Source: Ignavibacteriota bacterium
GTDB taxonomy: Bacteria; Bacteroidota; Ignavibacteria; UBA10030; CAVZMI01
Assembly (NCBI GenBank): GCA_963776275.1
Contig: CAVZMI010000005.1
Location: forward strand, 1-64,000
Direction: 5' to 3'
DNA: 64,000 bases
Below the pieces are notes generated by a model. The model searched no databases. It saw only the letters and a list, made by a program, of their open reading frames with translations, and was not told the DNA's origin. Positions 58,894 through 59,643 of the stretch are shown here, piece after piece (the stretch's first letter is position 1; every line of letters starts with the position of its first letter). A program made the position numbers and the translations under genes.

Positions 58894-59095
58894 GCTGAAG
58901 TAGCTCAGCGGTAGAGCAGTCCCGACAATTTTCTTATATGCTGGCGTAGCTCAGCGGTAGAGCAGCGGTTTCGTAAACCGCAGGTCGTCGGTTCAAATCC
59001 GACCGCCAGCTCAATGTATGAAGAGAAAATTTTCGGGATAAACCGCAGGTCGTGCCTTCCCGCTAAAGGCGGGAAGGCAAATCCCACCTTCAGCT
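58894..59095 (+). pseudogene. Disrupted outer tRNA-Thr allele (acceptor GCTGAAG/CTTCAGC) enclosing the intact tRNA
   Basis: 5' half 58894-58919 and 3' half 59039-59095 have perfectly complementary acceptor strands. The anticodon 5' strand and T-loop are replaced by palindromes. Confidence 0.8.
58940..59011 (+). tRNA. tRNA-Thr(CGT)
   Basis: Cloverleaf: acceptor GCTGGCG/CGCCAGC, D arm GCTC/GAGC, anticodon arm GCGGT-TTCGTAA-ACCGC, T arm GTCGG-TTCAAAT-CCGAC; CCA not encoded. Confidence 0.96.
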
Positions 59096-59643
59096 CAGCG
59101 GTAGAGCAGTCCCGTCCCGACGCAGTCGGGACGGGATAAACCGCAGGTCGTCGGTCCTCCGCCGCGCTTAATGACCGGGTGAGGCGGATCCGCCGTAGGC
59201 GGAAAATCCGACCCTTCGACTCGTCCTCCTTTGTCGGACTCGCTCAGGGTAACACCGCCAGCTCAATGTATGAAGAGAAAATTTTCGGGATAAACCGCAG
59301 GTCGTGCCTTCCCGCTAAAGGCGGGAAGGCAAATCCCACCTTCAGCTCAGTGGTAGAGCAGTCCCGTCCCGACGTAGTCGGGACGGGATAAACCGCAGGT
59401 CGTCGGTTCTCCGCCGCGCTTAATGACCGGGTGAGGCGGATCCGCCGTAGGCGGAAAATCCGACCCTTCGACTCGTCCTCCTTTGTCGGACTCGCTCAGG
59501 GTAACACCGCCAGCTCAATGTATGAAGAGAAAATTTTCGGGATAAACCGCAGGTCGTGTCCGCCACTGGCGGACAAATCCCACCCTTCGACTCGTTCATC
59601 CCGCTATCGCGGGATTCACTCGCTCAGGGTGAAGCCGCCAGCT
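59004..59643 (+). repeat. 252-bp tandem repeat of palindrome-interrupted tRNA-Thr fragments (two full units plus a variant partial)
   Basis: CGCCAGCTCAATGTATGAAGAGAAAATTTTCGGGATAAACCGCAGGTCGTG starts at 59004, 59256 and 59508. Confidence 0.93.

Follow-up and report, generated by a model that had tools for sequence, protein, structure and literature searches.

The array of tRNA-Thr fragments around the tRNA-Thr(CGT) gene in the 64,000-nt stretch of DNA analysed here (the window) may be the gene-less, decaying and recently re-duplicated relic of a homing-type selfish cassette that nests in tRNA genes, with its palindromes as conserved modules, a reading to which we give about an even chance of being right. 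We observe a nested anatomy, junctions at fixed tRNA positions, families of palindromic modules, differences in presence/absence and copy number between closely related genomes, a linkage to GIY-YIG genes and a spread across phyla. The features of the locus are collected in Table 1.

The centre of the nest is occupied by allele B, the genome's sole tRNA-Thr(CGT) gene (acceptor stem GCTGGCG/CGCCAGC, T stem GTCGG/CCGAC). Pieces of another allele, A, stand around it, with a T stem GTG../CCCAC and an acceptor strand CTTCAGC; all differences between the two alleles are compensatory and fall in the acceptor stem and the T stem. The acceptor strands of the outer allele A fragments, GCTGAAG and CTTCAGC, are mutually complementary, and a 15-nt inverted repeat (TCCCGAC…/…TCGGGA; arms 93% complementary, 58920-58934 versus 59024-59038) flanks functional allele B. 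With the allele A 5′ fragment (58894-58919) and the arms around the real tRNA, the array begins upstream of the start given in the original prediction. In the minimum-energy RNA fold, the outer acceptor strands and the arms pair around the allele B cloverleaf (z = -7.2). Between 58700 and 59900, every Rfam match except RF00005 at 58940-59012 fell below the gathering score and ARAGORN called only the same gene; a minus-strand DUF3800-X match, at 20 bits where the threshold is 38, was dismissed as chance-level. No ORF of at least 100 aa was found on either strand between 58785 and 59875. To judge from its consensus match, the promoter-like site upstream probably drives both the tRNA and the array.

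Table 1. Anatomy of the tRNA-Thr array (window coordinates)
Feature	Position	Strand	Remarks
Promoter-like site TTGCCT-17 nt-TATATT	58846..58874	+	Consensus scan; just 5′ of the outer tRNA fragment
Disabled outer tRNA-Thr copy (allele A): 5′ part, positions 1 to ~27	58894..58919	+	Acceptor strand GCTGAAG and D arm
Left arm TCCCGACAATTTTCT of the long-range inverted repeat	58920..58934	+	In place of the allele A anticodon arm
Functional tRNA-Thr(CGT), allele B	58940..59012	+	ARAGORN; Rfam RF00005, 74 bits
Right arm AGAAAATTTTCGGGA of the long-range inverted repeat	59024..59038	+	Recurs at 59276-59290 and 59528-59542
Allele A 3′ part, position 36 to 3′ end	59039..59097	+	23-nt palindrome (59055-59077) in place of T-arm GGTT
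Allele B pseudo-copy, 5′-truncated	59092..59265	+	No tRNA recognised by ARAGORN or Rfam
252-bp unit, second copy	59254..59505	+	99% identical
Third partial unit, diverged	59506..59645	+	Spacer, right arm, allele A 3′ part; end = GCCGCCAGCTAA

Tandem Repeats Finder assigns 2.2 copies of the 252-bp unit to 59002-59558, with 99% matches. By repeat search, the copies at 59002-59253 and 59254-59505 agree at 99%, and the third is matched over its first 53 nt only (59506-59558). Five tRNA-Thr 3′ portions, each starting with TAAACCGCAGGTCGT (59039, 59137, 59291, 59389 and 59543), alternate between the two T-stem alleles at the 252-bp period, just as the original prediction had it; the fifth is a hybrid, with CCCAC as in allele A but ending in ..GCCGCCAGCTAA. 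The AGCTCA joints described there, where an acceptor end doubles as the start of a D arm, are equally present, as overlaps of the allele A 3′ end with the allele B D arm at 59092-59097 and 59344-59349. A CRISPR array was rejected, since whole units including the 'spacers' repeat at 99% and the spacers are not unique. Related repeats form a stack of about 430 nt at window positions 2930-3360; the '3.2-kb stack' invoked earlier lies outside the present finding.

Palindromes stand at three positions of the tRNA fragments, all at the junctions previously proposed. At site 1, TCCCGTCCCGAC-GCA/GTA-GTCGGGACGGGA occupies 59110-59136, as the anticodon plug of the allele B pseudo-copy, and 59362-59388. 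At site 2, two allele A copies carry CCTTCCCGC-TAAAG-GCGGGAAGG (59055-59077 and 59307-59329) and the last one, in the third partial unit, carries TCCGCC-ACT-GGCGGA (59559-59573) at a GTG|CAAAT junction identical to that of the other two, which bears out the claim that different hairpins sit at one and the same junction. The allele B counterpart is a tandem pair of hairpins between TTC (TCC in unit 1) and AAAT, at 59158-59203 in the pseudo-copy and at 59410-59455. This T-loop plug consists of two hairpins, near-identical palindromes of each other, that follow GGTTC without target duplication; elsewhere its hairpins follow other sequences, and no matching TnpA was identified. The identical 15-mer TCCGCCGTAGGCGGA lies in three different T loops. 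Site 3, at the T-stem/acceptor junction, holds a dispersed repeat, CCCTTCGACTCG..CTCGCTCAGGG, at 59212-59249 (again within the pseudo-copy) and 59464-59501; in the third partial unit the element has other cargo (59583-59629), which resembles another copy in this genome (C27:77858-77906, 88%). The palindrome families recur at this genome's other tRNAs and in other phyla.

Do these palindromes betray a hairpin-writing system, as had been proposed? The fixed insert positions stand, but the palindromes belong to a few recurrent families and no writing enzyme was identified; as far as the sequences can tell, inheritance and recombination of ready-made modules would explain most of the pattern. The suggestion that the array serves as a decoy found no support, the plugged copies looking like disabled leftovers. 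As the main origin of the hairpins, tRNA arms 'zipped up' by template switching were ruled out by hairpin sequences unrelated to the arms they replaced. A hammerhead-like core in GGCUGAU..AGAAU was likewise discarded after inspection by eye, for the conserved core bases are absent and the TCCGCC variant lacks CUGA.

The organisation seen at tRNA-Thr recurs across the genome. Of the 46 tRNA genes, 20 have same-strand tRNA fragments of at least 10 nt no farther than 1.5 kb away, 74 fragments in all. Control counts were 5 fragments (opposite strand), 9 (reversed tRNAs) and 4-11 (random regions); the number of tRNA genes with fragments was 4-9 in controls. The fragments all lie on the tRNA strand, spacers between them and the tRNA measure tens to a few hundred nucleotides, and 5′ fragments upstream are as frequent as 3′ fragments downstream. 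Distinct 5′ boundaries (n = 41) fall at tRNA position 57/58 (10), 35/36 (5) and 39/40 (4). GGA precedes 14 of these 41, and TCC follows 15 of 45 3′ boundaries, the genome frequency of each trinucleotide being 1.7%. The boundaries thus cluster in the T loop (56|57) and the anticodon (35|36), and inserts open with TCC and close with GGA. Random insert positions had been named as a refutation of the original prediction; the positions being non-random, this catalogue does not refute it. Homologous T-loop modules occur at the Thr, Pro(GGG) and Ser(GGA) tRNAs. Perfect hairpins that open with TCC[CG] exceed a Markov control only about twofold (57 versus 28 in one contig).

A genome of the same genus (G001) displays the reciprocal state. 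There allele A is functional, its 5′ part being the same sequence as the 58894..58919 fragment of this genome, and downstream of it lies a pseudo-copy of allele B whose anticodon plug is the same; the identity of inner and outer allele flips between genomes. Among relatives' loci with a recognisable tRNA-Thr(CGT), 8 of 13 have a 3′ fragment whose start, TAA(A/T)C, follows ..CGGGA, and the arms vary between families yet remain complementary (AATTTTCT, AATTTCTT, AACG, TGCCC). At tRNA-Pro(GGG), the nest of this genome opens with a 5′ fragment bearing D-loop hairpins; next come a GIY-YIG gene containing an in-frame TAG, the functional tRNA and, beyond a spacer, a 3′ fragment with a T-loop plug. 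In G001 the closely matching flanks (98% for the upstream one) enclose a plain gene, so that all three plugs and the nuclease gene are either all present or all absent. Arrays in the two genomes are of unequal length, with a difference of 258 nt (3 x 86) at tRNA-Gly(GCC) and one of 964 nt at tRNA-Met, and a hairpin 5′ of tRNA-Val(CAC) shows paired compensatory changes across both arms.

The link to GIY-YIG genes anticipated by the original prediction is present in this genome: five tRNA loci with fragments carry such genes, of 72-97 aa, and 8 of the 15 PF01541 matches, at 5 tRNA loci, are mini-ORFs adjoining tRNA fragments; tRNA-linked ORFs of this kind lie, for instance, at C20:153755-153967 and C37:20836-21036. 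In the four ORFs scanned, PF01541 covers residues 1-75, that is, they comprise the catalytic domain alone; no DNA-binding domain was found in these four, a weak overlapping T5orf172 match exceeding the cut-off in one, and SegB-like sequence-specific cutting is therefore not a given. Inverted repeats around 11 GIY-YIG ORFs had 13-nt arms in one case and arms of at most 10 nt in the others, and the idea that a split palindrome carries a nuclease gene at its tip was dropped for this reason. With no nuclease gene in the window array and such genes at five other loci, the window can be at most a relic. The proposed link to HUH genes found no support. Y1_Tnp (PF01797) has 9 matches in the genome; the three best genes are flanked by other palindromes (CCACGAAC.., GCCCCCATGGGGGC, CACCCC..GGGGTG), and the TCCGCC, TCCCGAC and CCCTTCGA families are absent from their immediate flanks, which led us to reject RAYT as the hairpin writer. 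TCCGCC hairpins do occur near one PF01797 gene, but not as the nearest repeat.

Beyond this genome, the T-loop double palindrome was found with near-identical stems at at least 118 loci in many phyla, mostly just 3′ of a complete tRNA gene, and this near-identity of the stems holds for candidate-phyla-radiation bacteria as well as for Bacteroidota and Proteobacteria. Stem variants are complementary in 81 of 86 pattern matches, the second hairpin of the module is close to the reverse complement of the first, and many hairpin loops are GNA or GNRA-like. A complete same-strand tRNA lies just upstream at 48 of 80 fetched loci, and no tRNA call crosses a plug. In the phylum of the present genome the distribution is patchy (2 of 301 sampled genomes; a reversed control pattern gave 0 matches), and the plug pattern had 0 matches in a viral contig collection. 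The idea that the long loops seen in one form of the first hairpin hold a conserved cargo was rejected, as these loops vary across phyla. Pieces of a GIY-YIG ORF lie within 400 nt at 9 of the 80 loci, so plugs may belong to something besides the nuclease cassette. Outside subscription-only papers, our literature search yielded no account of either the arrangement or the 19-mer.

What kind of element could leave such a nest behind? The cassette that we favour would deliver a working tRNA copy, or a part to replace one in the resident gene, and would enter that gene at the anticodon loop (35|36), at the T loop (56|57) or at the D loop; the resident gene would remain as 5′ and 3′ flanking fragments. 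Palindromic modules, with a TCC start and a GGA end, would mark the junctions and either replace the 5′ half of an arm or occupy a loop. In the present case, allele B would have come to lie inside allele A, between the two arms of one such module; in the absence of cargo, the arms would abut and form a closed hairpin, as at site 1. The site 2 double palindrome splits the GGTTC|RAATCC motif, and site 3 would be an ordinary copy of the dispersed nested repeat. Unequal crossing-over between repeated tRNA pieces may have given rise to the 252-bp duplication, and recombination or template switching among family members may have swapped hairpins at one junction. The most likely driver would be a small GIY-YIG nuclease of the kind encoded at the five other tRNA loci. 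By analogy with SegB of phage T4, it would cut the intact tRNA gene, repair of the break would put a cassette-bearing copy in its place (homing), and the plugs would render the leftovers uncuttable and break up direct repeats that could delete the cassette. Since the functional inner tRNA retains an intact GGTTCAAATCC, a plug alone would not be protective were that motif the whole target; and because, at most loci in this genome, outer fragments and inner gene have the same sequence, allele differences are not a general immunity device.

According to the part of the SegB report available to us, this free-standing GIY-YIG homing endonuclease resides in a tRNA gene cluster of phage T4, recognises GGTTCRANTCC plus the tRNA 3′ end, cuts many tRNA genes and, through repair of the cut, spreads itself together with neighbouring tRNA genes (PMC2330249). 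On that account, the likeness extends to a GIY-YIG gene among tRNA genes, as at the five other loci of this genome, and to the recognised segment from the T loop to the 3′ end, which is the very segment that is duplicated and plugged here; presence/absence between conserved flanks, as seen at tRNA-Pro(GGG), is a further Seg-type feature. The differences are that SegB is phage-borne and full-size, whereas the genes considered here are chromosomal, 72-97 aa long and restricted to the catalytic domain, and that the window array has no nuclease gene. The combination of catalytic and DNA-binding domain that gives Seg-type enzymes a long asymmetric recognition site is lacking, and nested partial tRNA copies or palindromic plugs are not reported for SegB loci in the accessible part of that report (PMC2330249).

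A role of the palindromes as mere 'stuffers' leaves the strong conservation of plug stems across phyla unaccounted for. We tentatively entertain a second, possible though doubtful, reading, in which the palindromes play the active role. They would form one class of very small DNA modules, shared across phyla and comprising the double palindrome TCCGCC/GGCGGA, the clamp TCCCGAC/GTCGGGA and the element CCCTTCGA..CTCAGGG, which a structure-guided cut-and-repair system would place specifically into the loops of DNA hairpins. They would enter tRNA arms first and then each other's loops; the agent could possibly be domain-only GIY-YIG nucleases acting on extruded hairpins, and tRNA remodelling, duplication and allele swapping would be by-products. 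Small structured inserts are also known in the form of bacterial rRNA intervening sequences, Allomyces mitochondrial double-hairpin elements, fungal mitochondrial GC clusters and cyanobacterial small dispersed repeats. They occur sporadically at hairpin tips in structural-RNA genes, some of them nested and some with GIY-YIG genes. Those inserts differ in lying within functional genes or intergenic DNA, and not, as here, in disabled tRNA copies next to a functional gene.

Might the palindromes instead be independent REP-, PATE- or MITE-like elements that transpose into DNA-hairpin loops, with pseudo-tRNA arms as tolerant targets and GIY-YIG genes as passengers? We consider this unlikely, although 71 of the 80 plug loci have no nearby GIY-YIG gene, hairpin loops accommodate nested cargo, one junction holds two different hairpins, the site-3 family and TCCGCC hairpins are also present away from tRNA genes, and the CTCG..CTCG and TTCA..TTCA direct repeats that flank the inner hairpins of the site-3 element resemble target duplications. 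REP sequences (BIMEs included) and their RAYT transposases are a further comparison (PMC3733652). They offer a parallel in their short, GC-rich, dispersed palindrome families, some tandem or nested, and HUH-type genes—the 9 Y1_Tnp matches—are present in this genome. The RAYT-like genes here are, however, bordered by palindromes of other families, and the plugs are fixed within tRNA fragments. REPs are usually lineage-specific, whereas the plug stems are conserved across phyla. PATEs, which derive from IS200/IS605, have left- and right-end hairpins and insert 3′ of a fixed tetra- or pentanucleotide without target duplication. At the T-loop and anticodon junctions no target duplication is seen, a point against independent mobile elements. 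A precise 15-nt hairpin in this genome is missing at the matching place in G001, but the indel lies between GGCGGA direct repeats, and replication slippage can explain it. Moreover, plugs accompany a duplicated piece of tRNA and their right-hand junction is fixed, which the arrival of a larger unit explains better, and at tRNA-Pro(GGG) they are present or absent together with the nuclease gene.

That the plugged units are a functional structured RNA, co-transcribed with the tRNA as processing stems, stabilisers or tRNA mimics, strikes us as quite improbable. Leader-trailer stems do serve rRNA processing, and the common strand of tRNA and fragments, the promoter-like site together with the lack of a terminator-like site on the + strand within the array, the cloverleaf-in-cloverleaf fold, the compensatory changes that keep arms and hairpin stems paired and the common GNA or GNRA-like loops would all suit such an RNA. 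Yet palindrome-correcting DNA repair also maintains pairing, copy number and presence vary within the genus (the tRNA-Pro(GGG) nest is missing in G001) and across the phylum, and units lack one acceptor strand or the T loop and match no Rfam family. The T-loop module is palindromic in the duplex, its second hairpin approximating the reverse complement of the first, which points to DNA rather than RNA. Very unlikely, in our view, are fragments that represent displaced att sites of islands or prophages. The anticodon loop and the T loop, in which 3′ fragments begin, are reportedly (Williams, in 2002) the two classical crossover sublocations in tRNA genes, and in G001 the 3′ end of tRNA-Pro(TGG) harbours an insert of about 470 nt between direct repeats of 12 nt. 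Integration leaves partial tRNA genes behind (PMC9897764). The present locus shares with such remains the direct repeats of tRNA 3′ parts beside a complete gene and the breakpoints in the anticodon and T loops. Here, however, no integrase-sized ORF or island lies between the repeats across the short spacers, 5′ fragments are as common as 3′ fragments, the functional gene is nested inside the old one, units form tandem minisatellites, and the conserved palindromes at the junctions are not predicted by integration. It is equally hard to believe that short-read assembly of a metagenome bin produced the 252-bp duplication (the fragments themselves would be unaffected). The genome is a 38-contig draft, repeats of this length assemble poorly, and a search for sequencing runs with this stretch turned up 5, each with a share of 0.05-0.09 of the sampled words and none of them RNA. 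But the two full units are not quite identical, with a few differing positions, and the third departs from them after 53 nt, so the assembly path is no simple loop; a homologous multi-unit array exists in the independently assembled G001, and other tRNAs in both genomes bear similar arrays.

If the nesting cassette is real, bacterial tRNA genes in many lineages would be a battleground for a small homing-type element that spares its essential target by nesting a working copy in the disabled one and sealing the leftovers with conserved palindromes. It would account for many 'pseudo-tRNA' calls and tRNA-linked minisatellites in genome annotation, and would explain how tRNA alleles distinguished solely by compensatory stem changes come to replace one another. 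It would also imply that very small nucleases, or another enzyme, recognise the T loop—the most conserved DNA motif in biology—or DNA hairpins. The near-identity of plug stems across phyla is the most surprising fact of all, and it makes the question testable at the bench.

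What is the array of tRNA fragments behind the tRNA-Thr gene (59039..59643)? The original prediction had described five tRNA-Thr 3′ portions with exchangeable palindromes at fixed positions and proposed a hairpin-writing system; the sequence agrees with the description of the array on every point. Repeat finding gives a 252-bp unit in 2.2 copies at 99% identity. All five 3′ portions start with TAAACCGCAGGTCGT and alternate between alleles A and B, with palindromes in the anticodon arm (site 1), in the T loop (site 2) and where the T stem meets the acceptor strand (site 3). The sole tRNA called in the array by ARAGORN and Rfam is tRNA-Thr(CGT), an allele B copy; no other gene of the genome (G000, an Ignavibacteria-like draft of 3.7 Mb) has this anticodon. 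Downstream of the tRNA gene comes AGAAAATTTTCGGGA, at a distance of 11 nt if CA at 59011-59012 is taken as part of the ARAGORN call, and next to it the 3′ part of allele A, beginning at position 36 (inverted-repeat pairs I3-I5). As fragments of A and split palindrome arms flank it, functional B occupies the place of A's anticodon arm, an arrangement we call a nest. The closed site-1 hairpin, TCCCGTCCCGAC-GYA-GTCGGGACGGGA, is a cargo-free module of the same type as the split palindrome. In the predicted minimum-energy RNA fold (z = -7.2), the outer acceptor strands pair, the arms pair and a normal cloverleaf lies inside, which is what the sequence can form and no proof that it forms. A promoter-like site immediately precedes the outer fragment; no terminator-like site was found on the + strand within the array. 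The site-3 cargo of the third unit resembles a copy on contig C27.

Coordinates and composition of the tRNA-Thr alleles, tandem units and repeats (window positions unless a contig is named)
Feature	Location	Description
tRNA-Thr allele A (older, split)		T stem GTGGG/CCCAC; acceptor GCTGAAG/CTTCAGC
Allele A, 5′ part	58894-58919	upstream of functional gene; then TCCCGACAATTTTCT
tRNA-Thr(CGT), allele B	58940-59012	functional; T stem GTCGG/CCGAC; acceptor GCTGGCG/CGCCAGC
tRNA-Gly(GCC) units		five of 86 bp, upstream of gene
tRNA-Gly(TCC) units		three of 147 bp, after gene
tRNA-Met units	G000 C10:40690-42070 (outside window)	four tandem, 349 bp, after gene
Site-3 repeat	2930-3360	
Spacer-less head-to-tail site-3 array	G000 C21:6973-7228	8 units x 32 bp
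Spacer-less head-to-tail site-3 array	G000 C23:121687-121818	4 x 34 bp, TCCGCC-TCC-GGCGGA hairpin in each
Spacer-less head-to-tail site-3 array	G000 C4:18785-18895	5 x 23 bp
REP-like hairpins	420-720	CACCCC..GGGGTG and CAAGGGGC..GCCCCTTG
Y1-transposase (RAYT-like) gene	G000 C27:40241-40585	flanked by same hairpin type as 420-720
78-nt tandem repeat	7398-7655	3.3 copies, 88%; within 2267-aa ORF at 5577-12380
Insert at plugged tRNA-Pro(TGG) 3′ fragment	within locus G001 C1:422350-423800 (L030)	~470 nt, at fragment end; flanked by 12-nt direct repeats CCCCGACAAAAA; absent from G000

The same locus was compared in 14 relatives, all genomes being drafts or bins, and a tRNA-Thr(CGT) was recognisable in 13. 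In the same-genus genome G001, the flanking genes are the same (82–89% identity), the intact gene is allele A, and allele B follows, joined at AGCTCA and carrying the same anticodon plug; in a more decayed third unit the first T-loop hairpin is accompanied by a site-3 element whose cargo differs, and the 252-bp duplication is absent. Eight of the 13 loci, which represent at least five families of the order, have a 3′ fragment starting TAA(A/T)C directly after ..CGGGA. The functional gene is again nested in G017, G012, G034 and G031, with a 5′ fragment and a TCCCGA.. arm on its left and a ..TCGGGA arm and a 3′ fragment on its right; the arm extensions vary (AATTTTCT, AATTTCTT, AACG, TGCCC) and keep their complementarity. 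Inner and outer alleles also change: B lies in A in G000 and G017, A in a B-like copy in G031, and a B-like copy in a third type in G012. The sole differences between A and B are compensatory changes in the acceptor and T stems. Over 58700-60100 the flanks match G001 at the 82–89% seen for the genes, and six other tRNA loci have flank pieces at 90–99% (best matches 96–99% at Pro-GGG, Ser-GGA, Met and Gly-GCC), which suggests recombination or faster turnover at the tRNA-Thr locus.

Such fragments are widespread in G000. Counting pieces of at least 10 nt within 1.5 kb of a gene, 20 of the 46 tRNA genes have same-strand fragments (74 in total), compared with 5 genes and 5 fragments on the opposite strand, 9 and 9 for reversed tRNAs, and 4–9 and 4–11 for random regions. 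Tandem copies inflate raw counts, so we give distinct boundaries where it matters: among 41 distinct 5′ boundaries, position 57/58 accounts for 10, 35/36 for 5 and 39/40 for 4 (numbering from simple anchors, with a possible error of one), and the remainder are scattered, many within the D loop. GGA precedes 14/41 5′ boundaries and TCC follows 15/45 3′ boundaries; the genome-wide share of each trinucleotide is 1.7%. Junctions on the right are sharp, those on the left variable and often lacking the 5′ strand of the arm. Nests also occur at tRNA-Pro(GGG), tRNA-Ser(GGA) and tRNA-Thr(TGT). In each tRNA-Met unit an 87-aa GIY-YIG ORF continues at its 3′ end into a tRNA-Met copy whose D loop contains a TCCGCC hairpin, and a terminator-like hairpin comes next; the last unit additionally has the T-loop hairpin, and the G001 span is 964 nt shorter.

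Judged by their sequences, the palindromes are recurring families and not inventions of each site. One, TCCC..YCCGAC ... GTCGGR..GGGA, the anticodon/D-loop family, is present at Thr, Val(CAC), Val(TAC), Arg(TCT), Gly(CCC) and Ser(GCT), with 13 of 37 pattern matches within 1.5 kb of a tRNA gene; closed TCCCGAC..GTCGGGA plugs also sit in pseudo-tRNAs of one Omnitrophota and one Patescibacteria record. The T-loop module reads GGTTC, TC(C/A)GCC-loop-GGC(G/T)GA, TCCGCC-loop-GGCGGA, RAATCC. In G000, homologous copies are found in T loops left over from Thr, Pro(GGG) and, twice, Ser(GGA), and three separate T loops share the exact 15-mer TCCGCCGTAGGCGGA. When one genome was scanned per species, the module came up at no fewer than 118 loci; record titles among the matches listed include Ignavibacteria, Bacteroidota, Chlorobiaceae, Verrucomicrobiota, Planctomycetales, Omnitrophota, Margulisiibacteriota, Gammaproteobacteria bins and many Patescibacteria. 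Since these scans matched exact patterns, their counts are minimum values and the taxa no census. Random sequence would, by a rough estimate, give ~8 hits over all gap lengths and <1 for a 3-nt gap, the form of 55 of 86 matches; 81 of the 86 have complementary stem variants. First loops are purine-rich and second loops pyrimidine-rich, so the module comes near a 30-bp palindrome centred on GGA|TCC, and both loops can carry cargo, further hairpins included. At 48 of 80 fetched plug loci a complete same-strand tRNA (~18 amino-acid types) lies immediately upstream, at 4 downstream only, and at 28 no tRNA lies within 400 nt; no tRNA call among the 80 spans a plug. The distribution is patchy (2 of 301 sampled genomes of its own phylum; 0 hits for a reversed control pattern), and viral contigs gave 0 hits. 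The third family, at site 3, is CCCTTCGA(C)..(G)CTCAGGG, a repeat that is dispersed and nests in itself; G000 has 49 matches, some in tandem arrays and many enclosing hairpins of the first family or TCCGCC hairpins. Exact copies of its 19-nt base form, CCCTTCGACAAGCTCAGGG, occur at no fewer than 125 loci from almost all bacterial phyla, often as inverted pairs within longer hairpins (..CCGTTCG ... CGAACGG).

The suggested linkage of the fragments to GIY-YIG genes was borne out at five tRNA loci of G000, where 8 of 15 PF01541 matches are ORFs of 72–97 aa, catalytic domain alone, with a tRNA gene on one side and plugged fragments of that gene on the other. Turnover is visible between congeners. 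Between flanks that align closely (98% for the upstream one), tRNA-Pro(GGG) is a plain gene in G001 and a complete nest in G000, containing all three plugs plus a GIY-YIG gene with an in-frame stop. Array lengths differ by whole units, the two tRNA-Pro(TGG) cassettes are mosaic, and a hairpin upstream of tRNA-Val(CAC) has changed both arms (CCG/CGG to TTG/CAA). The GIY-YIG gene adjoining the G001 tRNA-Pro(TGG) insert is itself mosaic, its 5′ third strongly diverged from the G000 counterpart and its remainder near-identical.

We consider the array, with about an even chance of being right, to be the remains of a cassette that entered a tRNA-gene loop with a replacement tRNA or part of one and spread by homing. 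Against this reading, the window lacks a nuclease gene, most plugs lie far from any (an ORF piece is within 400 nt at only 9/80 cross-phylum loci), the tRNA-linked nucleases have no DNA-binding domain, and the T-loop motif of the inner gene is intact. Independent palindromic elements that seek loops, as originally proposed, would fit the 71 of 80 plug loci lacking a nearby nuclease gene, the cargo in the loops and the indel of a 15-nt hairpin that distinguishes congeners; we find them unlikely, however, as the tRNA-Pro(GGG) nest is all-or-none and the flanks of RAYT genes do not match the plug families. (G000 has nine PF01797 matches, flanked by at least three palindrome types.)

An RNA role for the plugged units deserves less credence still: strand bias and the kept pairing speak for it, patchy distribution and copy-number flux against it. 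Fragments left by integrases are very improbable, failing for lack of islands and for the presence of 5′ fragments, and mis-assembly of the duplication is about as improbable. In the openly accessible main texts searched, neither palindrome-plugged nested tRNA fragments nor mini GIY-YIG genes located at tRNA genes nor the 19-mer turned up, and the consulted passages of a paper on tRNA gene fragments (PMC9897764) mention neither hairpins nor GIY-YIG.

A known system resembles the cassette reading. In phage T4, the GIY-YIG homing endonuclease SegB is encoded within a tRNA cluster and cuts many tRNA genes, recognising 27 bp from GGTTCRANTCC to the tRNA 3′ end (PMC2330249). The window array duplicates this very segment, its conserved motif split by the plug. 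A further weak point of the cassette reading is that conservation of plug stems across phyla calls for a sequence-reading partner, and none was found. The sequences themselves show the anatomy, the fixed junctions, the palindrome families, the polymorphisms and the nuclease linkage; cleavage, homing and plug function are inferences. Under the cassette reading, flanking fragments would be what persists of the old gene, and palindrome arms would mark the cassette ends; closed hairpins would remain where cargo was lost, and recombination among the many short repeats would yield tandem units, hybrid alleles and hairpin swaps. We infer that cleavage by the nuclease would trigger the repair that carries the cassette from cell to cell, gene-less copies being relics or mobilised in trans, and that plugs may keep the nuclease off the leftover copies and break up direct repeats through which the cassette could otherwise be deleted.
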